NCBI GenBank assembly: GCA_963716175.1 | Contig: OY970296.1 | Location: 928,001 to 992,000, forward strand | DNA length: 64,000 nucleotides | Direction: 5' to 3' | From: an uncultured Armatimonadetes bacterium | GTDB lineage: Bacteria; Armatimonadota; Hebobacteria; Hebobacterales; Hebobacteraceae | Part shown: positions 2,468-54,582 of the stretch, piece by piece | Layout: each line of letters opens with the position of its first letter | Position numbering within the stretch: the stretch's first letter is position 1 | Position numbers and translations under genes: made by a program | The notes under the pieces: generated by a model | What the model saw: the letters and a program-made list of their open reading frames with translations, nothing else | Told to the model about the DNA's origin: nothing | Database searches by the model: none

Positions 2468-3768
2468 TGGCAGAGCAGCCCATCTACCTCGGCATCATCG
2501 GCTTCGGGAACGTCGGCTCCGGCACCTATCACACCCTCCTGGAGAATCAGGCGAGCATTGACCGGAAAGTGGGCCGGCCCCTGCGGGTGAAGCGCATCGC
2601 GGATGTGGACTGGTCCCGTCCCCGGCCGCTCGGGGTGAGCGTGCCGCCCGAACTGCGGACCACCGACGCCCGCACCCTGATCAACGATCCGGAGATCGCG
2701 ATCGTCGTGGAATGCATCGGTGGCATCCAGCCATCGCTCAACCTGGTGCTGGAGGCGCTGCGCGGCGGCAAGAGCGTGGTGACCTCCAATAAGGAGCTGG
2801 TGGCCCGCCACGGCAAGGAGCTGTTCGACGCCGCCGCCGCGCGCGGCCTCGATCTCGCCTTCGAGGGCAGCGTGGGTGGCGGCATCCCCATCGTCCGGCC
2901 GCTCAAGAGCTGCCTCGCCGGCAACCGCATCAGCCGCATCATGGGCATCGTCAATGGCACCACCAACTTCATCCTCACCCGCATGCGCGAGCAAGGGACC
3001 GAGTTCGGCGAGGCGCTGGCAGAGGCACAGCAGCTCGGCTATGCGGAACCGGACCCGACCAATGACGTGGAGGGCTTCGACGCCGCCTTCAAGCTGGCGA
3101 TTCTGGCCTCCATCGCGTTCGAGACCCGGGTGCTGGTGGAAGACATCCACCGGGAGGGGATCACCGGCCTGGCGGCGCGCGACATGGAGTACGCCCGGCA
3201 GTTCGGGTACATCATCAAGCTGCTCGCCATCGGCGCCGAGGTGGAGGGCGGCCTGGAGCTGCGGGTGCACCCCACCTTGCTCCCCCTGAGCCATCCTCTG
3301 GCTGCCGTGAGCGGGCCCTTCAATGCCATCTTCGTGCGCGGCAGCTCGGTGGGGGAGGTGATGTTCTACGGGCAGGGAGCAGGCCCTCTGCCCACCGGGT
3401 CGGCGATGGTCGGGGACATCATTGATGTGGCGCGCAACCTCCGCTTCGGGGCCACCGGCCGCGTGGCTTGCACCTGCTTCGAGGAGAAGCCGGCCCGCCC
3501 CATCGAGGAACTGCGAACTCGCTATTATCTCAGGACCCAGGTGGCGGATCGGCCCGGGGTGCTGGCCGCCATCGCCAAGGTCTTCGGCGAAGAGGGAGTG
3601 AGCCTCGCCTCGGTGCTCCAGGTGGCCGCCTCCGGGCAGACCGCGGAGATCGTGTGGCTGACCCACGAGACCCGGGAGCGACAGATGAGGCGCTCCCTGG
3701 AGCGCATCGCCGCACTGCCGGAGGTGCACCAGATCAACAGCCTCATCCGCGCCGAGGACCAGGAGTGA
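2467..3768 (+). CDS. hom: homoserine dehydrogenase with C-terminal ACT domain
   Basis: GFGNVG, FEGSVGGGIP, NGTTNFIL, GYAEPDPTNDVEG and DRPGVLA motifs. Confidence 0.97.
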   Translation: MAEQPIYLGIIGFGNVGSGTYHTLLENQASIDRKVGRPLRVKRIADVDWSRPRPLGVSVPPELRTTDARTLINDPEIAIVVECIGGIQPSLNLVLEALRGGKSVVTSNKELVARHGKELFDAAAARGLDLAFEGSVGGGIPIVRPLKSCLAGNRISRIMGIVNGTTNFILTRMREQGTEFGEALAEAQQLGYAEPDPTNDVEGFDAAFKLAILASIAFETRVLVEDIHREGITGLAARDMEYARQFGYIIKLLAIGAEVEGGLELRVHPTLLPLSHPLAAVSGPFNAIFVRGSSVGEVMFYGQGAGPLPTGSAMVGDIIDVARNLRFGATGRVACTCFEEKPARPIEELRTRYYLRTQVADRPGVLAAIAKVFGEEGVSLASVLQVAASGQTAEIVWLTHETRERQMRRSLERIAALPEVHQINSLIRAEDQE

Positions 3769-3772
3769 GACC

Positions 3773-4873
3773 ATGAGATCACGACCGGAGTGGCCCGGCG
3801 TCATCGAGGCCTACCGCGAGTTCCTGCCGGTGTCTCCGTCCACCCCTGTGGTCACGCTGCTGGAGGGCAATACCCCCCTGCTGCCGGCGCCGAACCTGCA
3901 AGAGCGAATCGGCCTGCCCATCCCGCTCTATCTGAAATACGAGGGCGCCAACCCCACCGGCTCTTTCAAGGACCGCGGAATGACCATGGCCGTGTCCAAG
4001 GCCCTGGAGGAGGGCCAGCGAGCGGTGATCTGCGCCTCCACCGGCAACACCGCCGCCTCCGCCGCCGCCTACGCGGCCAAGGCCGGCCTCCAGTGCATCG
4101 TCGTGCTGCCCCTGCGCTACATCGCCATGGGCAAGCTCGCCCAGTCGCTGGTGCACGGGGCGAGGGTGGTGGCGATTGACGGCGTCTTCGACGACGCCTT
4201 CCGCATCGTGGTCGAGATCAGCAGCAACCACCCGGTCCAGTTGGTCAACTCCGTCAACCCCTATCGCATTGAAGGGCAGAAAACCGGGGCCTTCGAGATC
4301 TGCGAAGCCCTGGGTGACGCGCCCGTCTACCACGCCATCCCGGTGGGCAACGCGGGCAACATCACCGCTTACTGGAAGGGCTACTGCGAGTACCACAGGC
4401 TGGGGCGCAGCCGCCGCCGGCCCAAGATGCTCGGCTTTCAGGCCGAGGGCGCGGCCCCCATCGTGCGGGGCGAGGCCATCGCGGATCCTCAGACCATCGC
4501 CACTGCTATCAAGATCGGTAACCCGGCGAGCTGGAAGGGCGCGGTGGCCGCCCGCGACGAATCCGGAGGGCTGATCACGACCGTAACCGATGACGAGATC
4601 ATTGAGGCCTATAAGATGCTGGCCGGGGTGGAGGGCGTTTTCTGCGAGCCCGCCTCCGCCACCTCGGTGGCTGGCGTCGCCAAGCTGACCCGGCAGGGCT
4701 ACTTCGCGGGCGAGCAGGCGACTGACGCCTCCGTGGTCTGCATCATCACCGGCCATGGCCTCAAGGACCCCGACCGCGCCATTGCCACCGCCGCCGAGCC
4801 GGAGAAGGTGGAGGCGAATGTGGAGGCGGTGGTGGAGTTGCTAGGGTTGAGGGAACCGGCGCTGGTTCCGTAG
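3773..4873 (+). CDS. thrC: threonine synthase
   Basis: NPTGSFKDRG, ASTGNT and PVGNAGN motifs; directly after hom. Confidence 0.97.
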   Translation: MRSRPEWPGVIEAYREFLPVSPSTPVVTLLEGNTPLLPAPNLQERIGLPIPLYLKYEGANPTGSFKDRGMTMAVSKALEEGQRAVICASTGNTAASAAAYAAKAGLQCIVVLPLRYIAMGKLAQSLVHGARVVAIDGVFDDAFRIVVEISSNHPVQLVNSVNPYRIEGQKTGAFEICEALGDAPVYHAIPVGNAGNITAYWKGYCEYHRLGRSRRRPKMLGFQAEGAAPIVRGEAIADPQTIATAIKIGNPASWKGAVAARDESGGLITTVTDDEIIEAYKMLAGVEGVFCEPASATSVAGVAKLTRQGYFAGEQATDASVVCIITGHGLKDPDRAIATAAEPEKVEANVEAVVELLGLREPALVP

Positions 4874-4950
4874 TAGGGCAGGTCCCCCTAGGCCGCCTGC
4901 CGCGGCCGGGGTGGCGGCCCGCTGCGCAGGTTGAGCCACGCGACCTGCCC

Positions 4951-4976
4951 GGCGGGCATGGGCATGCCCGCCCTAC
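4951..4976 (-). repeat. REP family A (GTAGGGCGGGCAT..ATGCCCGCC)
   Basis: GTAG plus palindrome; same family as the REPs flanking the RAYT gene. Confidence 0.9.
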
Positions 4977-5052
4977 AACGAGCTGCCTCCTGCCAATCCG
5001 ACTGCCGTTACCGCATCCCGGCGGTTCTAGCGGTCGTCGGTCGCTTTTCTCC

Positions 5053-5149
5053 CCCTTTCTCCGCCGTGCGCCCGCCGGGCCGGCCGATGATCCAGCGTAT
5101 AGTACCCCAGGTCCCGAGGGTGGGAGGCGGGCGCACGGCGGGGAAAGGG
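5053..5149. repeat. 24-bp inverted repeat with 49-nt spacer
   Basis: CCCTTTCTCCGCCGTGCGCCCGCC (5053-5076) versus GGCGGGCGCACGGCGGGGAAAGGG (5126-5149); one mismatch, which is G-U compatible. Confidence 0.8.
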
Positions 5150-5160
5150 CCTCGCAGCGG

Positions 5161-5190
5161 GGACAGGAGACAGGCTCCTGCCCAAAGAAC
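5161..5190 (-). repeat. REP-like family B (GGGCAGGAG-N5-CTCCTGCCC), diverged copy
   Basis: Related copies at 7357, 8458 (interrupted) and 11411. Confidence 0.7.
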
Positions 5191-5273
5191 GGGAACCCCA
5201 CGTAGGTAGAAGAATGAGAGGAGAAGCTCGTGTGCGCAGTGGCCTAGTGCAGACTGAACTGAGGGGAGGCGGA

Positions 5274-6398
5274 ATGCGAGTTCACGCTCAAGCGCTTCTC
5301 GGGCTGGCGCTGCTGCTTCTGGGTGCAGCAGCAGCGCGCGGGCAGCAGAGCGAATACCGGTCGGGGGCAACGCAATCCACCAATGAAGGCATAGCCACTC
5401 CGGTAAGGTATGATTGCCTTGAGTTGCTGAGCGTGACCGCGCAGCTCATGACGCCGGGACTGCCACGTGACAAGTCTCTGCTCGCAGGCGGGGACGAAAG
5501 CGCCTTGGAGGTTGTCCGAGGCTTGGCGCGCCGCTACACAGTGGTCCTTGTCAAGCTTGAAGCGAAGGGGGTCCCTGCCACCTTTCTGATGTCCAGGTGG
5601 CAGCTGGTGGCCGGGAAGAACACGCTTGACCAAGTTACCCGGATTGACGACCTAGGCGTGATGCCTCCCCTGAGCAAGAACTTGCAGGCAGGCACTGAGC
5701 TGCTTGGATTCCTATGCTATCCCAAAGCGGAATTGGGCAATGTCGACGTCGTGCTGGTCGCGCCCGAGGGCACTATACGTGAGGAGAGCTCGGGCCTCTC
5801 GGCAGTCCATTTCGTGCTCACAGGACCCAGGCCCCGGGCGCTAACTCCGCTCGATATAAGGCGCGAGCAACGGGAGTCCGATACACCATTGTTCCGTCCC
5901 GGCGAAACTGTCACGCCCGCCAAGCGCGGCAGCGGGGTTGTGAAGACACGGGTTACAGTGGTGGGACAGCCGCTCAGCGGAGTGTGGATGCTCCTCGCCC
6001 CCTTTGACTATCGCGACGACATGGACCGTGCGGAGGAGTTCTACCGAAGCATGGGCCTGTCCCTTCAGGAGGTTATGGACTCGGCCCTTGCAGGTTTCTC
6101 CGGCGCTTATCACCGGAAGGCGACGGATGCCAAGGCCGCCGGAGCTTTGTCGGAATTCCGCCTGGACCGAGCTGGGGAAGCGAACGTCGAAATGGGCGCC
6201 GGGCAGTACTGGCTTTCGGTTGCTCTGGAGCACCGCAAACACTCCCTGGAGAGTCCGTCGGGTGCACACCGTCCGAGCCACTACACCGCGCGCGATGGGA
6301 AGACCTACTGTTGGAACGTCCGTGTCGTGATCGAAGCGGGTAAGATGACGAGTGTCGTGCTGGATGAGGCGAATGCCATGCTTGTTCCAGGGAAATGA
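5274..6398 (+). CDS. hypothetical exported protein
   Basis: Signal-peptide-like N-terminus; GGAGG SD; more A/T-ending codons than neighbours. Confidence 0.7.
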   Translation: MRVHAQALLGLALLLLGAAAARGQQSEYRSGATQSTNEGIATPVRYDCLELLSVTAQLMTPGLPRDKSLLAGGDESALEVVRGLARRYTVVLVKLEAKGVPATFLMSRWQLVAGKNTLDQVTRIDDLGVMPPLSKNLQAGTELLGFLCYPKAELGNVDVVLVAPEGTIREESSGLSAVHFVLTGPRPRALTPLDIRREQRESDTPLFRPGETVTPAKRGSGVVKTRVTVVGQPLSGVWMLLAPFDYRDDMDRAEEFYRSMGLSLQEVMDSALAGFSGAYHRKATDAKAAGALSEFRLDRAGEANVEMGAGQYWLSVALEHRKHSLESPSGAHRPSHYTARDGKTYCWNVRVVIEAGKMTSVVLDEANAMLVPGK

Positions 6399-6588
6399 AC
6401 AAGAGTCACGGCCCTAGCTTACCGTCGTGCCCATTCCGCAGGAAGCCTGCCCCTGCCATTCCTTTTGAAGGCTGGCCTAGCCTCGTCACGCTCTGCGCTG
6501 GGCATTGAGACGGGCCGGAAGGCTCGTCTGCACCGAGCTTGCGCAAGCTGGGAGATCGTCCGATCCGAGTAGATGGGAGGTCAGGCAC

Positions 6589-7347
6589 ATGTGCCAATTG
6601 CTGGGCATCTCCTCTAACCGGGAAGTGGATCTTGCCTTTTCCCTTCGCGAATGGCGCCACCGCGGGTGTAGCAATCCGGATGGGTACGGATTCGCCTATT
6701 GGGACACGGCTCAGCTCTACATCATCAAGCGTGCTCGCGACCTTTGGGGAGAGAATGCCGAGCGCCTAGACGAAGTCAGGTCAAAACGTAGCCGCACGTT
6801 CCTATGCCATGTGAGGCTCGGATCAGTAGGTGAGCAGGACGGTAGGAATACGCATCCGTTCAAGCGCGTGCTCGATGGACGTCACTTCGCGTTCGCCCAC
6901 AATGGTACTCTCTGCGGGTACCGAGAGCAGTTGCAGCTGAGGCAACTGTCTCCCGAAGGCGATACGGATTCCGAATACGCTTTTCTGTGGCTGCTCGAAC
7001 AGCTATCGGGCGTAGCTGCCGAAAGCTTTTCTGTGCAGCTTCAGTACCTTGCGGACAAGGTCCAGCGATTCGGGAGGTTCAACTTCTTGCTGAGCGACGG
7101 CACAACACTATGGGCCTATGCCGACAATGCCTTGCACTTCATAGAGCGGAGGCCTCCGTACGGAGGCGAGTTGGTGCGCCTACTGCAGGAAGGGTACACT
7201 GTTGCTCTCTCGGACGTAAAGAAGTCCGATGAAAGGGCCATTCTGGTGGCGACCTGCCCGCTCACTGATGAGTCAGGTTGGGAGGGCCTAGGAGTTCGCG
7301 AACTGCTGGTGATCCGCGATGGACAGGTCTGCGAAAGGCTTCGCTAG
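6589..7347 (+). CDS. class II glutamine amidotransferase (YafJ/EgtC-like Ntn hydrolase)
   Basis: N-terminal MCQLLG, NPDGYG, NTHPF, FAHNG, GDTDSE and FNFLLSDG motifs. Confidence 0.92.
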   Translation: MCQLLGISSNREVDLAFSLREWRHRGCSNPDGYGFAYWDTAQLYIIKRARDLWGENAERLDEVRSKRSRTFLCHVRLGSVGEQDGRNTHPFKRVLDGRHFAFAHNGTLCGYREQLQLRQLSPEGDTDSEYAFLWLLEQLSGVAAESFSVQLQYLADKVQRFGRFNFLLSDGTTLWAYADNALHFIERRPPYGGELVRLLQEGYTVALSDVKKSDERAILVATCPLTDESGWEGLGVRELLVIRDGQVCERLR

Positions 7348-7540: not shown

Positions 7541-8428
7541 ATGACCCGCGTCATCCTCCAGACCGACCTCCCCTCCATCCCCCTCCTCGCCCGCGGCAAG
7601 GTCCGCGACATCTACGATCTGGGCGAGCGGCTCCTGATCGTGGCCACCGACCGCATCTCCGCCTTCGATGTGGTGATGCCCAACGGCATTCCGGACAAGG
7701 GGCGGGTGCTGACCGCTATGTCCCTGTTCTGGTTTGAGTTCACCAAGGACCTCGTCGAGAACCACCTGATCACCGCGGATGTCGCCCAGTACCCCTCTCC
7801 CCTGCAGCCTCACTCGGATCTGCTGGCAGGCCGCAGCATGCTGGTGAAGCGCGCCAAGGTGGTGCCGATCGAGTGCGTCGTGCGCGGCTACCTCGCAGGC
7901 TCGGGATGGAAGGAATACCAGGAGAAGGGCACGGTGTGCGAGATCGCGCTGCCCCTGGGCCTCCGCGAAAGCGACAAGCTGCCCCTGCCCATCTTCACCC
8001 CGGCCACCAAGGCCGAATCCGGCCACGACATCAACATTCCCCCTGAGCAGGCCTCCCGCATGGTCGGGCACGCCACCTATCACCGCCTGGAATCGCTCAG
8101 CCTCGCGGTCTACCAGCGCGCGGCCGACTACGCCCGCGATCGCGGCATCATCATCGCCGACACCAAGTTCGAGCTGGGCCGGCACGAAGGCCGCCTGATC
8201 CTGGTGGATGAAGTGCTCACCCCCGACTCCTCCCGCTTTTGGCCCCTGGACGACTACCGGCCCGGCCGCTCCCAGCAGAGCTTCGACAAGCAGCCGGTGC
8301 GAGACTACCTGGAGGGGCAGGGCTGGGACAAGCAGCCGCCCGCGCCGCAGCTGCCGACGGAGGTGGTGAAGGGGACGCGCAAGCGGTATGTGGAAGCTCT
8401 GCAGATGCTGACGGGGAAGACTCTGTAG
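7541..8428 (+). CDS. purC: SAICAR synthetase
   Basis: RGKVRDIY, TDRISAFD, ECVVRGYLAGSGW, DTKFE and DEVLTPDSSRFW motifs. Confidence 0.98.
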   Translation: MTRVILQTDLPSIPLLARGKVRDIYDLGERLLIVATDRISAFDVVMPNGIPDKGRVLTAMSLFWFEFTKDLVENHLITADVAQYPSPLQPHSDLLAGRSMLVKRAKVVPIECVVRGYLAGSGWKEYQEKGTVCEIALPLGLRESDKLPLPIFTPATKAESGHDINIPPEQASRMVGHATYHRLESLSLAVYQRAADYARDRGIIIADTKFELGRHEGRLILVDEVLTPDSSRFWPLDDYRPGRSQQSFDKQPVRDYLEGQGWDKQPPAPQLPTEVVKGTRKRYVEALQMLTGKTL

Positions 8429-8454
8429 GGCGGGCGTTCCCACGCCCACCCTAC
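8425..8454. repeat. double-ended REP palindrome GTAGGGCGGGCGT-tccc-ACGCCCACCCTAC
   Basis: GTAG overlaps the purC TAG stop; CTAC closes the other end. Confidence 0.8.
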
Positions 8455-8594
8455 AGTGGCAGGAGGCAAGCCTACTCCGCCGAAGTAGCTGAAGCTCCTT
8501 CGGCTACGAAGGCTAGAAGCTCCTGTCCAACGAACCTCTATTCAACCCCGTAGGGCAGGGCTCGCGATTCCGCGCAACACGGAAGGGAGACAGC

Positions 8595-9329
8595 ATGCCC
8601 GAGAAGATCCGCGTCGTCTGCTGGAACGAGTTTCGCCACGAGAAGAGCGATGAGCACATCGGCAAGATCTATCCCAATGGCATGCACGCCGTCATCGCCG
8701 ACCACCTGAACAAGCAGCCCGGCATCGCCGCCAGCCTGGCCTGCCTGGATGATCCGGAGCACGGCCTTACCAAGAAGAGGCTGGCAGAAACCGATGTCCT
8801 GATCTGGTGGGGACACATGGCCCACCACGAGGTGAAGGACGAGATCGTGGACCGCGTCCAGAACCGGGTGCTCGCGGGCATGGGCCTGATCGTGCTTCAC
8901 TCCGGCCACTTCTCCAAGATCTTCCGGCGCATGATGGGCACCGAATGCAACCTCTGGTGGCGGGAGATCAACGAGAAGGCGCGCTACTGGGTGGTGGCCC
9001 CGGATCATCCCATCGCCGCCGGCCTCGGTCCCTATTTCGAGCTGCCGCATGAGGAGATGTACGGCGAGTTCTTCGACATCCCGCCTCCAGACGAACTGGT
9101 CTTGATCGCCTGGTTCGCCGGGGGCGAGGTGTTCCGCGCCGGCTGCTGCTACCACCGGGGACATGGGCGGGTTTTCTACTTCCAGCCGGGCCACGAGACC
9201 TACCCCAACTATAAGGACCAGAATGTCCTCAAGGTGATCACCAACGCCGTGTGTTGGGCGGCGCCCCCCGCGGGTATGGCGCCGCGCGAGTTCGGCAACC
9301 GCGCCGTCCCGCTGGAGAAGCTAAGCTAG
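8595..9329 (+). CDS. ThuA domain (trehalose utilisation) protein
   Basis: [31 protein letters not shown] and FQPGHETYP motifs. Confidence 0.93.
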
Positions 9330-9354
9330 CACCAACCGTCCGACGCGAGAGCGA

Positions 9355-9379
9355 GGGGAGTCCGCTCCGCGGACTCCCC
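9355..9379 (+). terminator. perfect 11-bp hairpin after the ThuA gene (terminator or REP-like)
   Basis: GGGGAGTCCGC-tcc-GCGGACTCCCC; no U tract. Confidence 0.4.
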
Positions 9380-9449
9380 ATCCGGGCGAATCCGTGTTCA
9401 TCTGCGGTTCAGCCCGGTCCCCCCCTCTGTGGTTCGCTCTCCCTGCTCA

Positions 9450-9458
9450 TGCTATAAT
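9450..9458 (+). promoter_or_regulatory. extended -10 element TGCTATAAT, near-leaderless transcript
   Basis: Ends 9 nt before the ATG at 9468; no SD. Confidence 0.55.
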
Positions 9459-9467
9459 CGCCTCAAC

Positions 9468-10670
9468 ATGCAGCCCAGCCAGCCGGTCAACCTCAAACGC
9501 ATCATCATCATCATGGACGGCGCGGCCGACGAGCCGCAGGCCGAGCTGGGCGGCCGGACGCCGCTGCAGGCAGCGCGTAAGCCCCACACGGACGCGGTGG
9601 CGCGGGAGGGGAGGTGCGGCCTGGCGCAAACCATCCCCGATGAGATGGAGCCCGGCAGCGATATCGCCGCGCTCTCCATCCTGGGCTATGATCCTCGCCG
9701 CTACCACACGGGCCGCGCTCCCCTGGAGGCGGCCAGCCTCGACATCCCCATGAACCCCTCCGATGTTGCCTTTCGCGCCAATCTCGTGACCTCCGATGGC
9801 ACCACCATGGTTGACTACTCCGGTGGTGAGATCCCGACCGCGGACGCGCATGTGCTCATCTCCCTGGTGAATCAGCGGCTCTCCACGCACCGGGTGCAGT
9901 TCTACTCCGGGGTGAGCTACCGCCACGTGATGGTATGGCGCGGCGGCTCGGCGGAGGTGAAGACCACCCCACCCCACGACATCATCGGCCAGCCCATCGA
10001 GCCCTACCTCCCCCGAGGCGAGGGCGAGCAGATGCTGCGGCAGCTCATGTTCGACTCTCTCGATCTCCTGGACGGGCACGACATCAACAAGCGCCGCCGC
10101 GACCAGGGTAAACCTCCGGCCAACATGATCTGGCTCTGGGGACAGGGGCGGCCCTGCATCCTGCCCTCTTTCATGCTCCAGCGGGGCGCGATGGGCGCGG
10201 CGATCGCGGCCGTGGACCTGATCCGCGGGGTGGCCAAGTGCGCCGGCCTGGCCGCGCCGGAGGTGCCGGGCGCCACCGGCAATCTCGAGACCGACTTCAG
10301 CGCCAAAGCTCGCGCCGCGCTCGGCGCGCTCGACCGCTACGACTTCGTCCTCGTCCACATCGAGGCCCCGGATGAGGCCGCCCATCAGGGCAGCGCCGAG
10401 CGGAAGGTCTGGGCGATCGAGCAGATTGACCAGAAAGTGGTGGATCCGCTGATGGCGCGGCTACGCGAGCTGCATGGCAGCAAGCTGATGGTGGTCGCCG
10501 ATCACTACACCAAGCTCAGCACCCGCACCCATGCTCGCGAGCCCGTCCCATTCGCCATTTGGGGCGGCGCGCGCGATGCCGCGGAAGCCTTCGACGAGCC
10601 CAACGCCGCTGCCACCGGCCGCTTCCTGGAAGACGGCTGGCGGCTCCCCGACCTCCTCTTCGAGAGCTGA
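9468..10670 (+). CDS. apgM: cofactor-independent phosphoglycerate mutase (ApgM type; proposed homoserine kinase subfamily)
   Basis: DGAADEP, GRTPLQAA, PGSDIA, TGRAPLEAA, HIEAPDEAAH and ADHYT motifs. Confidence 0.88.
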   Translation: MQPSQPVNLKRIIIIMDGAADEPQAELGGRTPLQAARKPHTDAVAREGRCGLAQTIPDEMEPGSDIAALSILGYDPRRYHTGRAPLEAASLDIPMNPSDVAFRANLVTSDGTTMVDYSGGEIPTADAHVLISLVNQRLSTHRVQFYSGVSYRHVMVWRGGSAEVKTTPPHDIIGQPIEPYLPRGEGEQMLRQLMFDSLDLLDGHDINKRRRDQGKPPANMIWLWGQGRPCILPSFMLQRGAMGAAIAAVDLIRGVAKCAGLAAPEVPGATGNLETDFSAKARAALGALDRYDFVLVHIEAPDEAAHQGSAERKVWAIEQIDQKVVDPLMARLRELHGSKLMVVADHYTKLSTRTHAREPVPFAIWGGARDAAEAFDEPNAAATGRFLEDGWRLPDLLFES

Positions 10671-10671
10671 T

Positions 10672-12120
10672 GTGGCCACCTTCCCGGAACGCGTGGCCGC
10701 CACCGTCTCCGCTCACCACATGATCTCACCTGGGCAGGTGGTGCTGGTGGCACTTTCGGGCGGCGCCGACTCCACCGCGCTGCTGCACGCGCTGGCTCAA
10801 CTCCGTGCCAAGCTCGGGTTCCGGCTGGCGGCCTGCCACATCCACCACGGCCTGCGGGGAGCGGAGGCGGACGCGGACGCGGCGCACGCCGCCGCTCAAG
10901 CCCAATCCCATGGCCTCCCGTTCAGCCTCAAGCGGGGCGATGTGCGCGCCCGCACTGGCGGCCGCCGCCTCTCTCTCGAGGCTGCCGCGCGTGAGGTCCG
11001 CTACCAGTTGCTGGAGGAAGCCGCGGGCGAGATGGGAGCAGACCGCATCGCCACCGGCCACACCGCGGATGACCAGGCCGAGACCGTGCTGCTGAACCTG
11101 CTGCGAGGCGCTGGGGCCGGGGGCCTGGCAGGCATGCCGGCAGTGCGCGGCCGCATCATCCGGCCCCTGCTGGAAGTGCGCCGCGCCCAGGCGGAGGCGT
11201 ACTGCATGGCCGAAGACCTGGCGTTCCGGACGGACCGGTCCAACCAGGACCTGCGCTTCACCCGGAACCGTATCCGCCACCGCATCTTGCCGGCGCTGCG
11301 GGAGATCCAGCCCCAGGTGGACGCCGCGCTCTGCCGACTGGCGTGGCTGCTGAGAGAGGAGGATAGCTTTCTGGCGGCCGAGGCGGCACGCCACCTGAAG
11401 GCGATCGGGCTTCGTAGGGCAGGAGCGTGTCTCCTGCCCTTGCCGCCCTTTGCTGAACTGCACCCCGCGCTGCAACGCCGGGTGGCCCGCGCCGCCATCG
11501 CCCAGGTAAAGGGAGACGAGCTGAACCTGGGGCTGGAGCGGGTGGAAGCCCTGGTCAACCTGATGCTCGCCGGCCGCACCGGCGCGCGCATCGAGCTGCC
11601 CGGCCGGGTGCAAGCAGTGCGAAGCTATGGCGAAGTGGTGATCTCCCCTTCTGGAACGGGCAGGTCGAAGCGCGCCCGCCCGGAGCCGACCTGGGACTTG
11701 CCGGTGCCCGGGCAGGTCACAGTGCCTGAGCTCGATATCCGATTCGCGGCCTCCCGCTCGACTGCCAAGCGCCCGCCGCGGGATGCCTTCATCGCGCTGA
11801 TAGACGCCGCCGCGGTCACTCAGCCGCTGCAAATCCGCACCTGGCGGGCTGGTGACCGCTTCATCCCCTACGGCCTGGGCAAGCGGGTGAAGCTCCAGGA
11901 CTTCTTCGTCAACCGCAAGATCCCACGGCACCTGCGGAAGCGAGTGCCCCTGGTGGTATGCGGAGACAGGATCGTGTGGGTGGTGGGCCACCGCCTCAGC
12001 GACGAGTTCAAGGTAACTCCGGACACCCGAAGAACCATTCGCCTGCAGGCCTGCTCCGGCCTGGCCAGCTCACCTGACGGCGCAGGAGGAGACCATGGCG
12101 ACTTCCGCGGAGATCGCTGA
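10672..12120 (+). CDS. tilS: tRNA(Ile)-lysidine synthetase
   Basis: ALSGGADS PP-loop, ATGHTADDQAET, RPLL, RNRIRH and C-terminal TilS domain; GTG start inferred. Confidence 0.96.
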   Translation: MATFPERVAATVSAHHMISPGQVVLVALSGGADSTALLHALAQLRAKLGFRLAACHIHHGLRGAEADADAAHAAAQAQSHGLPFSLKRGDVRARTGGRRLSLEAAAREVRYQLLEEAAGEMGADRIATGHTADDQAETVLLNLLRGAGAGGLAGMPAVRGRIIRPLLEVRRAQAEAYCMAEDLAFRTDRSNQDLRFTRNRIRHRILPALREIQPQVDAALCRLAWLLREEDSFLAAEAARHLKAIGLRRAGACLLPLPPFAELHPALQRRVARAAIAQVKGDELNLGLERVEALVNLMLAGRTGARIELPGRVQAVRSYGEVVISPSGTGRSKRARPEPTWDLPVPGQVTVPELDIRFAASRSTAKRPPRDAFIALIDAAAVTQPLQIRTWRAGDRFIPYGLGKRVKLQDFFVNRKIPRHLRKRVPLVVCGDRIVWVVGHRLSDEFKVTPDTRRTIRLQACSGLASSPDGAGGDHGDFRGDR

Positions 12121-52512: not shown

Positions 52513-52542
52513 TTGACACTGCCGCGAAGCCCATGCTAGAAT
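52513..52542 (+). promoter_or_regulatory. sigma70 promoter of the tRNA array, TTGACA-18-TAGAAT with TGn extension
   Basis: Consensus hexamers about 70 nt before tRNA-Glu. Confidence 0.8.
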
Positions 52543-52612: not shown

Positions 52613-52688
52613 GGCCCCATCGTCCAGAGGCCTAGGACGCCGGCCCTTCAAGCCGGAAACGGGGATTCGAATTCCCCTGGGGCTACCA
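52613..52688 (+). tRNA. tRNA-Glu(TTC)
   Basis: Cloverleaf, anticodon arm CCGGC-cc-TTC-aa-GCCGG, encoded CCA. Confidence 0.95.
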
Positions 52689-52763: not shown

Positions 52764-52838
52764 GGGCGCATGGCTCAGTGGGAGAGCGCCTGCTTCACAC
52801 GCAGGAGGTCGCTGGTTCAAATCCAGCTGCGCCCACCA
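52764..52838 (+). tRNA. tRNA-Val(CAC)
   Basis: Cloverleaf, CCTGC-tt-CAC-ac-GCAGG, encoded CCA. Confidence 0.95.
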
Positions 52839-52872: not shown

Positions 52873-52948
52873 GGGCGAATAGCTCAGTTGGTAGAGCGCT
52901 TGCTTTACACGCAAGTGGTCACAGGTTCGAGCCCTGTTTCGCCCACCA
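52873..52948 (+). tRNA. tRNA-Val(TAC)
   Basis: Cloverleaf, CTTGC-tt-TAC-ac-GCAAG, encoded CCA. Confidence 0.95.
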
Positions 52949-52957
52949 GGCAAATCT

Positions 52958-52983
52958 GTAGGGCGGGCATACCCATGCCCGCC
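52958..52983 (+). repeat. REP family A within the tRNA array
   Basis: GTAGGGCGGGCATACCCATGCCCGCC. Confidence 0.9.
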
Positions 52984-52999
52984 GGCCGTATCGTAGCGC

Positions 53000-53076
53000 G
53001 GAGCCGTAGTGCAGTGGTTTAGCACACCGGCCTGTCAAGCCGGAGGTCGCGGGTTCAAATCCCGTCGGCTCCGCCA
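53000..53076 (+). tRNA. tRNA-Asp(GTC)
   Basis: Cloverleaf, CCGGC-ct-GTC-aa-GCCGG, encoded CCA. Confidence 0.95.
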
Positions 53077-53090
53077 CAAGTGAACACCGT

Positions 53091-53230
53091 GCCGGGTTAG
53101 CTCAGGTGGTAGAGCTTACGCCAGACGCTAGCATACCTAACTGAAGACCGACGAACTCGTGCCGGGTTAGCTCAGGTGGTAGAGCTTACGCCAGACGCTA
53201 GCATACCTAACTGAAGACCGACGAACTCGT
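53091..53230 (+). repeat. 2 x 70-bp exact tandem repeat, each unit starting with a 25-nt tRNA 5' fragment
   Basis: GCCGGGTTAGCTCAGGTGGTAGAGC plus 45 nt, at 53091 and 53161. Confidence 0.95.
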
Positions 53231-53306
53231 GCCGGGGTAGCTCAGATGGTAGAGCACTGGACTGAAAATCCGGGTGTCCCCAGTTCGATTCTGGGCCCCG
53301 GCACCA
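53231..53306 (+). tRNA. tRNA-Phe(GAA)
   Basis: Cloverleaf, CTGGA-ct-GAA-aa-TCCGG, encoded CCA. Confidence 0.95.
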
Positions 53307-53346
53307 GTGAGGCGGCGGTTCGCTGCCGAGCGGACGGGAGCTGGAT

Positions 53347-53583
53347 ATGAGGCCACTGCGACACACCATCCATGCCGTGATCCGGCCAGGCGAAGACGGT
53401 GGGTTCGTCGCGGAGTGCCTAGAGATTGCGGTAGTGACCCAAGGCAAGAGCCTCGATGAAACGGTTGCCAACCTCCGGCAGGCGGTGGGGCTGCACCTGG
53501 CAGGAGAGGACCTGGAGGCATTGGGCCTGTCACCCTCGCCGTCCCTTGTGGTGAGCATGGAGATCGAACCGGTCCATGCCTAA
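53347..53583 (+). CDS. hicB: short HicB-family antitoxin
   Basis: GGFVAEC..VTQG..LDE...NL..AV.LHL; no DNA-binding domain. Confidence 0.88.
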   Translation: MRPLRHTIHAVIRPGEDGGFVAECLEIAVVTQGKSLDETVANLRQAVGLHLAGEDLEALGLSPSPSLVVSMEIEPVHA

Positions 53584-53821
53584 GCTCCGGCGCCTCTCGG
53601 GCCGTGAGGCGCTAGCAGTGCTGGGTCGGTTCGGGTTCGAACGGGTGTCGCGGCGGGGGAGCCACGTGAAGCTTGCCAGGGTGGGCCCAGCGGGTGAACG
53701 GCAGGTTCTGACTGTTCCTGATCATGCCACCATGGATCTGGGGACTATCCGCGCTATCTTCCGACAGGCCTCGCGGTTCATCCCTGCAGATCAGTTGCGG
53801 GTGTTCTTCTACGACGACTGA
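53576..53821 (+). CDS. hicA: HicA-family mRNA interferase toxin
   Basis: L...GF, RGSH, TVPDH and GT.RAI.RQA motifs; overlaps hicB. Confidence 0.9.
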   Translation: MPKLRRLSGREALAVLGRFGFERVSRRGSHVKLARVGPAGERQVLTVPDHATMDLGTIRAIFRQASRFIPADQLRVFFYDD

Positions 53822-53874
53822 GCCCGAAGAGGGCCTGAGCTAGACGAGCGGTCGCGAGAGCGAACCCTGGTTTG

Positions 53875-53902
53875 CCCAGTTCGACTCTGGGACCCGGCAC
53901 CA
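53875..53902 (+). repeat. tRNA 3' fragment (T arm, acceptor strand and CCA), att-like
   Basis: CCCAGTTCGACTCTGGGACCCGGCACCA; 26/28 identical to the tRNA-Phe 3' end. Confidence 0.9.
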
Positions 53903-53951
53903 GCGACAGAGAGGCGACGGCCGTCCGGTCGTCGCCCCTATCTCCTCTTCC

Positions 53952-54449
53952 CTACGCGATGGCGGAGAACTTGCTCTTCGGCGACTGGCAGATGGGACAC
54001 TTGTCGGGCGCTTCCCCGATCACGGTGTTGCCGCACACCCCGCACACCATGATGGGCGCCGCCAGCATGTCCTTGCCCGAGTTCAGCGCCGCCAGCGCCT
54101 CCGTGTAGAGCCGGTGGTGGATCTTCTCCACCGCCAGCGCGTTCTCGAATGACATCACCGCCGCTTTGTTCCCCTCCGCCTTCGCCTCGGCCACGAACCC
54201 CGGGTACATCTCGGTGAACTCGTAGGACTCACCGCCCATCGCCGCCTTCAGATTCTCGGCCGTCCCCTTCAGGCCCAGCACCTCGAAATGCGCCTGCGCG
54301 TGCACCCGCTCTGCCTGGGCTGCAGCCCGGAACAGTTTCGCGATCTGGGGATATCCCTCCGCCTCCGCCTTCTTGCCAAAGGCCAGATAGGTCTGATGAG
54401 CCTTGCTCTCGCCCGCGAACGCAGTCTGCAAGTTGTCACCGGTTGCCAT
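53952..54449 (-). CDS. rbr: rubrerythrin
   Basis: AFAGES, E..HA, MYP and EK.H motifs; C-terminal CxxC...CPxC. Confidence 0.95.
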   Translation of the reverse strand: MATGDNLQTAFAGESKAHQTYLAFGKKAEAEGYPQIAKLFRAAAQAERVHAQAHFEVLGLKGTAENLKAAMGGESYEFTEMYPGFVAEAKAEGNKAAVMSFENALAVEKIHHRLYTEALAALNSGKDMLAAPIMVCGVCGNTVIGEAPDKCPICQSPKSKFSAIA

Positions 54450-54582
54450 TACCAACTCTCCTTCACCATCAGGTGTAGTTCAGCACCACCGTCGCGCACG
54501 GCCTTCGCCGCCTGATCGCCTCCACCTATCCCTCTGCACAGCCATCGCTGCGACCTTGCCCGCGATTCGCGCCAAGGAGCTG

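Follow-up and report, generated by a model that had tools for sequence, protein, structure and literature searches.

The tRNA-Phe(GAA) gene described here belongs to a 64-kb window (the whole stretch of DNA analysed, genome positions 928001-992000) of an Armatimonadota genome and is enclosed by partial copies of tRNA-Phe. A 5' piece lies upstream, within two 70-nt units, and a 3' piece lies downstream, at the end of a 596-nt islet with a predicted hicB-hicA toxin-antitoxin pair (hicBA). We propose, with a probability of roughly 60%, that the locus arose by two attachment-site (att)-type insertions at opposite ends of a resident tRNA-Phe gene with a G7-C66 pair, both of which are now without a recombinase. 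The first-pass annotation had read the pieces as an ancestral gene split by an element with its own tRNA and had given two integrations at opposite gene ends as an alternative; the alternative was favoured by a contig of a relative, which skips both inserts separately.

Organization of the locus

Two tRNA-Phe alleles are distinguished: type 1 (G7-C66, A16, T59) and type 2 (T7, G16, C59, A66). The features needed for the argument are as follows.

53000-53076 (+): tRNA-Asp(GTC), gene four of a conserved Glu-Val-Val-Asp-Phe cluster (ARAGORN, Rfam).
53088-53096 (+): CGTGCCGGG, left copy of a 9-nt direct repeat bounding the 140-nt insert; right copy at 53228-53236.
53091-53160 (+): unit 1, type 2 tRNA-Phe positions 1-25 (53091-53115) plus a 45-nt spacer, TTACGCC...GAACTCGT; no counterpart in the relative's contig (X4).
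53161-53230 (+): unit 2, 70/70 identical to unit 1, running into the intact tRNA-Phe.
53231-53306 (+): intact tRNA-Phe(GAA), type 1, taken as the resident gene (ARAGORN; Rfam tRNA, 69.3 bits).
53307-53902 (+), equivalently 53297-53892: the 596-nt islet.
53347-53583 (+): HicB-like open reading frame (ORF), putative antitoxin, 78 aa, N-terminal domain only.
53576-53821 (+): HicA ORF, predicted toxin, 81 aa (PF07927, E 1.9e-12, 47.5 bits against a cut-off of 27).
53863-53902 (+): tRNA-Phe 3' fragment, type 2, clear over 53875-53902 and weaker back to about 53863.
53913-53936 (+): GC-rich hairpin GGCGACGGCC-GTCC-GGTCGTCGCC, read from the sequence and taken as the terminator of the resident tRNA-Phe.
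53952-54455 (-): rubrerythrin gene, convergent, in the downstream flank common to the X4 contig (PF02915, E 4.1e-24).

The 5' fragment GCCGGGTTAGCTCAGGTGGTAGAGC (positions 1-25) started 14 nt past tRNA-Asp and had, relative to the intact gene, T7 instead of G7 and G16 instead of A16. The 3' fragment CCCAGTTCGACTCTGGGACCCGGCACCA (53875-53902, positions 49-76), about 0.8 kb further on, had C59 in place of T59 and A66 in place of C66 and was identical to paralogs B, C, F and G elsewhere in the genome. T7 of the former would pair with A66 of the latter, against G7-C66 in the intact gene. These features had been noticed in the first-pass annotation and were confirmed, as was its view that both fragments represent a single allele unlike that of the intact gene. 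The 5' fragment, which it had counted once, was real but repeated: Tandem Repeats Finder reported 53088-53255 (period 70, 2.4 copies, 97% matches, score 322), with a second identical fragment at 53161-53185 and the start of the intact tRNA-Phe as a partial third copy. All of these pieces were on the + strand and on the correct side of the intact gene, 5' pieces upstream and the 3' piece downstream. Together they spanned positions 1-25 and about 37/49-76, and the anticodon stem-loop was absent, so that they do not make up a complete split tRNA.

An unoccupied counterpart in a relative

Positions 52950-54000 were compared with Logan contigs of four DNA metagenome runs (X1-X4). One contig of X4 (record 26, 493 nt, depth 25.4) matched three pieces of the window, and its own coordinates were contiguous across them.

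53027-53087: 0 differences.
53228-53296: 1 difference (53258 T>C).
53893-54000: 11 differences.

The order in this contig was tRNA-Asp, an identical 14-nt spacer, a tRNA-Phe with G7, A16, T59 and C66, the hairpin and the rubrerythrin flank. Exactly 140 nt, corresponding to the two units, were missing where 53087 was joined to 53228, a joint ambiguous over the 9 letters of CGTGCCGGG (the final 3 leader bases plus tRNA-Phe positions 1-6). Exactly 596 nt, corresponding to hicBA plus fragment positions 37-66, were missing where 53296 was joined to 53893, ambiguous over the 10 letters of CCCGGCACCA (tRNA-Phe positions 67-76). The presence and absence of both inserts, with exact boundaries, were thus observed directly; among the criteria for islands is a relative whose empty site is bounded within a short block of identity, and one contig displayed this. 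By reasoning rather than computation, a 31-base word across either joint cannot be built from the arrangement in the window, indicating that the contig is no graph artefact of a window-like genome. The occupied state was real too, since the junction between tRNA-Phe and hicB was covered with 0 differences by record 8 of X1 (548 nt, tRNA through hicA) and by record 24 of X3 (234 nt, from another study); X1 may be the source sample and hence not independent.

tRNA-Phe alleles and copies

The genome consists of one contig of 4.56 Mb. Counting its tRNA-Phe genes, a check suggested in the first pass, gave five tRNA-Phe(GAA) genes by ARAGORN and four further Phe-like copies by BLAST, which were mutated or had no proper 5' end. 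T7, G16 and A66 were found in 8 of these 9 loci (type 2), most of them also with C59 and with a different anticodon stem; the intact gene of the window was the sole type 1 copy, and both window fragments carried the type 2 allele. An identical tRNA-Phe was present as a paralog in G011, a relative, and in loci L101 and L046. At the syntenic site of 13 family relatives (the family is an Armatimonadota lineage, by record titles) the alleles were distributed as follows.

G7-C66: G006.
A7-T66: nine relatives.
T7-A66 (type 2): G012, G008 and G005 (3/13), at unit-free sites.

Type 2 was also the syntenic gene in L087. No special link between the two fragments is required to explain why they are complementary, because both would descend from type 2 genes, which are common in this lineage. 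A T7/G16 fragment ahead of an identical or near-identical G7-C66 gene recurred in L101 and L084, without hicBA.

Several other tRNA-Phe copies of the genome had neighbours worth recording. The region G000:C1:981879-1072292, which begins at 53879 of the window, has three tRNA-Phe 3' remainders downstream of the window gene and on its strand. The first is 0.6 kb away; copy I, which starts near tRNA position 17, is at +47 kb, and copy F, which starts near position 5, is at +91 kb. The intervals contained no integrase match, and the remainders may represent old tandem accretion at the window tRNA-Phe. At 2279679-2285258, paralog B is followed by a 5.5-kb stretch of ORFs, none with a Pfam family above cut-off, and then by copy G (flank plus tRNA positions 8-76). 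At 747667-789520, paralog H is followed after 42 kb by a unit at paralog C, behind a 167-nt flank 97% identical to that of copy G. Both stretches look like islands bounded by tRNA-Phe copies. A shared right end of such islands was sought and rejected: GGCCTGAGCGCGAGTGGAGCGA was exact only at paralogs C and G, and the likeness of 53830-53862 was too weak. No complete recombinase gene was found beside the other tRNA-Phe copies of the genome, integrase fragments about 3 kb from paralog D being the lone exception, and no integrase lay within a few kb of the tRNA-Phe copies of G011. A 16-nt 5' fragment at G011:2976643, about 600 nt from an integrase, could not be interpreted.

Upstream units in relatives and metagenomes

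Units like those of the window were widespread. One or two stood directly upstream of four further tRNA-Phe loci in the genome, none of them identical to the window unit, and the syntenic Asp-Phe site carried units in 6 of the 13 relatives.

No unit, Asp-Phe spacer 12-44 nt: G006, G003, G007, G004, G012, G008, G005.
One unit, spacer 77-78 nt: G013, G002, G014, G010.
Three units, spacer 218 nt: G009.
One decayed unit, spacer 99 nt: G011.

Units were then sought with a pattern for the spacer core in species-representative, metagenome and viral contigs. Seven stretches were obtained from contigs of one genome per species (four in this family, three unrelated and without tRNA context) and 33 from metagenome contigs, 29 of which contained units; viral contigs gave 0 matches. 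hicBA was absent from the unit-bearing loci of the family relatives and of the 29 metagenome stretches. No downstream 3' fragment was found at the 13 syntenic loci (150 nt to 4.5 kb examined) or at most metagenome loci. G004 and L077 shared a 17-nt spacer, tagtggctgttgtgcgt, followed by the gene alone in G004 and by a unit and then the gene in L077; they form a second empty/occupied pair, for a unit alone.

A total of 63 units was parsed, in arrays of 1-4 parsed units and with lengths of 61-72 nt. Their spacers measured 35-37 or 44-47 nt (40 nt in one decayed unit), with the first 30 bases or so conserved and the tails variable. Unit subtypes were mixed within arrays and common to unrelated arrays. 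The distal unit was more decayed than the proximal one in 9 of 16 arrays, equally decayed in 2 and less decayed in 5, and in 12 of 30 distinct proximal units the fragment was the same as positions 1-25 of the gene that follows. Alignment columns 1-49 were ungapped in 40 of 41 units, with (T)TGGTA of the D-loop at a fixed distance of 17 nt from TAGCAT; promoters native to the family read TTGACA-N17/18-TAGAAT. The promoter scan did not report the units, which by hand count had 7 of 12 matches against a threshold of 9, and a promoter role is, from such motifs, only a possibility.

Two other identities were rejected for the unit. It did not behave as a structured small RNA: the fold of a single unit gave z -0.26 against shuffles, RNAalifold on 41 units gave 4 pairs (-3.46 kcal/mol) and no conserved fold, and Rfam reported no family at threshold, with weak tRNA-like YrlA matches far below it. 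Nor did it look like a decayed second tRNA, having no anticodon or T arm and a CTGAAGA stretch without a flanking stem.

In L086, a metagenome locus, the 3' end of a gene for a 420-aa Xer-like tyrosine integrase lay about 70 nt past the unit. Close homologues of this integrase occur in several copies in this genome and in G011.

A unit of similar make-up was seen at another tRNA. At G000:C1:1468576-1468644 (L123), tRNA-Gly(GCC) follows a 39-nt spacer and, before that, a repeat of its own positions 1-30 with one mismatch. The spacer shares the 13-mer GCAGCGGCTAGCA with tRNA-Phe spacers, and none of the 12 relatives that proved to have the gene carried this unit. Ahead of tRNA-Gly, G011 shows two further, different partial 5' repeats. 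In L073, a 1189-aa TPR-CHAT protein lies between an open unit and a unit with tRNA-Phe (features at 3056-6625 (-) and 8036-10879 (+)), and past the open unit come an HTH protein, a CHC2 zinc-finger primase-like protein and a DnaB-like helicase, gene content that suggests mobile DNA. A conserved AAGGGAAACGACCAGGGCATTGCTGTAGT..GCGGGTTCGAATC.CCGG with a T-arm-like motif inside was noted about 40-110 nt past tRNA-Phe in several loci of relatives and metagenomes (L041, L027, L042 and L073).

Proposed origin

According to the passages of PMC4383910 and PMC9897764 that treat integration, an element that inserts splits its tRNA target and restores the gene, and its far end is marked by the displaced fragment. 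In the passage of PMC4383910 on Islander, a 5' fragment is recorded for 159 islands and a 3' fragment for 3760 (159/3919). The rare class that displaces a 5' fragment is present in this genome: at G000:C1:1709494-1711299 (L124), the intact tRNA-Thr(TGT) gene has a 5' fragment (positions 1-38) 1.7 kb upstream, and the interval contains a PF00589 integrase, making this a small island of that class.

At the window locus, a separate piece of DNA would have been inserted at each extreme end of the resident G7-C66 tRNA-Phe of the conserved cluster. Upstream, 140 nt would have entered within or next to CGTGCCGGG as two identical 70-nt units, each consisting of type 2 positions 7-25, the 45-nt spacer and the repeat. 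Downstream, 596 nt would have entered within CCCGGCACCA, bringing hicB-hicA and ending in a type 2-like copy of positions 37-66. Both inserts would then carry a type 2 tRNA-Phe stretch, as attachment sites of elements integrating in tRNA genes do. The crossovers would have fallen in the outermost 9-10 bases, which are common to types 1 and 2 and lie outside the variable positions, so that the resident gene remained complete with its pairing intact, while T7 and A66, both foreign, came to lie in the displaced pieces. The part of the attachment site beyond the crossover would stay with the element and keep the sequence of its gene of origin. As neither insert encodes a recombinase, they would be relics or would depend on an enzyme made elsewhere. 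Site-specific recombination is in this proposal the presumed cause, gain rather than loss the presumed direction, and hicBA may have had a stabilising role, as supposed in the first-pass annotation, which had named tRNA essentiality beside it.

Several points weigh against this proposal. The empty site is a single short Logan contig of a relative; its downstream flank is about 90% identical to the window, and joints at a likeness below 95 can come from other organisms. Two deletions through short repeats would yield the X4 contig too, so the direction of change is not proven, and selection for a paired 7-66 would favour exactly the crossover points described. The 3' fragment matches at just 8 of 12 of positions 37-48, leaving its true extent uncertain. 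There is no recombinase in the window, the link between an integrase and the units comes from one case, L086, and no units were found beside the close homologues of its integrase whose flanks were examined (two in G000 and one each in G011, G005, G008 and G012) or in the region next to paralog D, which the DNA comparison also covered. Finally, an insert of 70 or 140 nt, as the islandless units would require, is too small for an ordinary excised circle.

The split-gene reading would have one element (the spacer, its own G7-C66 tRNA-Phe and hicBA) enter an ancestral type 2 gene. Positions 1-25 would be pushed to the left and the 3' part to the right; the remainder would later have lost positions 8-36, and the left unit would later have been duplicated. 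It agrees with the type 2 allele of both fragments around the sole type 1 copy of the genome, and with the B-G copy and the 167-nt flank at paralog C, where long remainders and unit-type junctions co-occur. It also agrees with L076, L078 and L100, in which the spacer tail ...CGACGAACTCGT and this tRNA subtype travel together behind a different fragment allele. However, X4 has a G7-C66 gene between matching flanks with neither units nor hicBA, so two further exact deletions would be needed there, in addition to the extra deletion and extra duplication in a window where no recombinase is present; moreover, the same tRNA sequence is tied to at least four different spacer tails. We regard this reading as improbable. 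The observation that the first-pass annotation had named beforehand as telling against it, G7-C66 as the ancestral allele in relatives, is what the X4 contig displays, and its expectation of an intact T7-A66 tRNA-Phe at empty sites held for G012, G008 and G005 and failed for X4, the closest relative seen. An island with its own complete tRNA integrating in the D-arm is, in view of the X4 contig, kept only as a rival. An assembly chimera through repeated tRNA-Phe sequences, also raised in the first pass, is scarcely credible: nine tRNA-Phe-like loci and repeated units can mislead assemblers, and the best-matching run, X1, is possibly the source sample, but the 234-nt contig of X3 crosses from the tRNA-Phe 3' end into hicB without a difference, that of X1 spans 548 nt from the tRNA through hicA, and the repeats are shorter than the context that distinguishes them.

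The units could instead be local tandem duplications or selected cassettes (e.g., extra tRNA-Phe promoters) that expand and contract by unequal crossing-over, with hicBA alone inserted. Local duplication or gene conversion would account for the identity of the two window units and for the 12 of 30 proximal units that equal the gene behind them, and the ungapped columns with their promoter-like spacing would suit a selected cassette. Yet the window fragments have exactly the two type 2 alleles rather than the adjacent gene's, the rest of the genome holds no identical unit, the promoter scan was silent on the unit, and duplication of leader plus 5' end would start the array on its left with a spacer instead of a fragment. 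Repeated events are preferred to simple local duplication because of the mixed and shared subtypes, the pattern of distal decay and the foreign allele in the window units; this explanation is unlikely, though worth keeping in view. Quite unlikely, in our estimate, is a more specific form of insertion in which the units are cargo-free mini-cassettes of 61-72 nt, inserted and removed at the 5' boundary of tRNA-Phe (occasionally tRNA-Gly) by a trans-acting Xer-like integrase of the L086 type, forming integron-like arrays and possibly bringing a promoter each, with the copied D-loop as -35 ((T)TGGTA-N17-TAGCAT). If this were true, arrays would tune tRNA-Phe expression or offer gene-sparing landing pads.

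The hicBA islet and the tRNA cluster

The islet reads, in order, a 40-nt leader, hicB-like, hicA, 41 nt, a tRNA-like segment and the 10-nt repeat, and the two genes are its only ORFs of at least 40 aa with a family match. The HicB-like ORF gave matches below threshold to Pfam DUF7387 (E 0.0046), PDB 2yzt (1.6e-4) and HicB 9svk_B (3.5e-3) and no match in NCBIfam; we take it, from the usual HicB architecture, to be without a DNA-binding domain. The GSH stretch of the HicA ORF aligned with HicA 9svk_A. Over 53863-53902 the tRNA-like segment was identical to paralog B at 36 of 40 positions. The first pass had thought the arrangement of tRNA, hicBA and fragment worth seeking at other tRNAs; hicBA was found at tRNA-Phe in none of 14 family relatives, and the sole hicBA homologue among them, in G006, was not beside a tRNA. 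A second hicB-like/hicA pair lies in this genome 44 nt past tRNA-Ser(CGA) (G000:C1:3555067-3555720, PF07927 at 3555500-3555667); the 3 kb beyond contained no second copy of the final 10-12 nt of that tRNA.

The remaining genes of the cluster were each identified by ARAGORN with an Rfam tRNA match.

52613-52688: tRNA-Glu.
52764-52838: tRNA-Val.
52873-52948: second tRNA-Val.

A strong promoter-like site, TTGACA-18-TAGAAT, lies ahead of them at 52513-52542 (promoter scan), and the Glu-Val-Val-Asp-Phe order was present in 13 of the 13 family relatives whose cluster was fetched. The hairpin at 53913-53936 resembles hairpins 3' of other tRNA-Phe genes and is directly 3' of tRNA-Phe in the X4 contig. 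The first-pass annotation had seen no recombinase at the locus, and none was found in the window: of the genome's matches to PF00589 and PF00239 (tyrosine and serine recombinases), 0 fell within it.

Relation to known systems

The locus is of a known kind, scars of tRNA-gene-targeting elements, one of them with a toxin-antitoxin pair. It shares with tyrosine-integrase tRNA islands, as the Islander/TIGER passages of PMC4383910 describe them, an intact tRNA and a displaced fragment in matching orientation and on the correct side, short identity blocks at the boundaries, an empty site in a relative, toxin-antitoxin cargo and tandem accretion at one tRNA. It differs from them in that neither insert has an integrase, the downstream islet is just 596 nt long, the upstream inserts are cargo-free, 61-72 nt long and arranged as 1-4 parsed units per array, inserts occupy both ends of a single gene, and the displaced pieces differ in allele from the resident gene. 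The unusual part is the cargo-free tandem 5' units, found widely in this Armatimonadota family; a literature search not aimed at this question yielded no account of islandless 5' scar arrays. The predicted toxin-antitoxin pair agrees with type II HicAB modules in its antitoxin-first order, 8-nt overlap, HicA domain (PF07927) and small HicB-like partner, although the HicB-like ORF has only 78 aa and weak matches.

In the split and permuted tRNA genes of archaea (Nanoarchaeum, Caldivirga), 5' and 3' tRNA pieces lie apart in the genome, as do the 5' and 3' pieces of one tRNA in the window. The window pieces differ from these in being without an anticodon arm, in having a bacterial host, an intact gene between them and a relative with an empty site, and nothing points to their joining. 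Integron cassette arrays consist of ordered tandem short units, each with a copy of the recombination site, next to a fixed site. By analogy, the window-type units are tandem and ordered, each has what may be a recombination-site copy, and the distal one is often more decayed; unlike cassettes, they have no integron integrase, attC structure or genes, and RNAalifold gave them no conserved fold.

The case shows that an intact gene can be flanked by tRNA fragments other than the halves of a split one, that a foreign allele in such fragments is expected of the attachment sites of integrating elements, and that one empty-site contig can settle such a question. Should the units prove to be inserted as such, they would represent site-specific mobile DNA in a new minimal form; should they carry promoters, they would offer a new means of regulating a tRNA gene.

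Repeats at other tRNA genes

Two other tRNA genes of this genome were accompanied by repeats. At G000:C1:1774695-1775504 (L126), tRNA-His(GTG) is followed by five 162-nt tandem repeats, each ending in a tRNA-His 3' part (about positions 44-76) with a hairpin of about 51 nt (GGCTAAGCCC...CCTAGCC) inside the T-loop. At G000:C1:3484904-3485434 (L125), a pseudo-copy of tRNA-Arg(CCG) has a similar 51-nt hairpin in its T-loop and is followed by a small ORF, GIY-YIG-like by eye, a duplicated 45-nt upstream flank and the intact tRNA-Arg; this arrangement may represent a mobile element with the T-loop as its insertion site.

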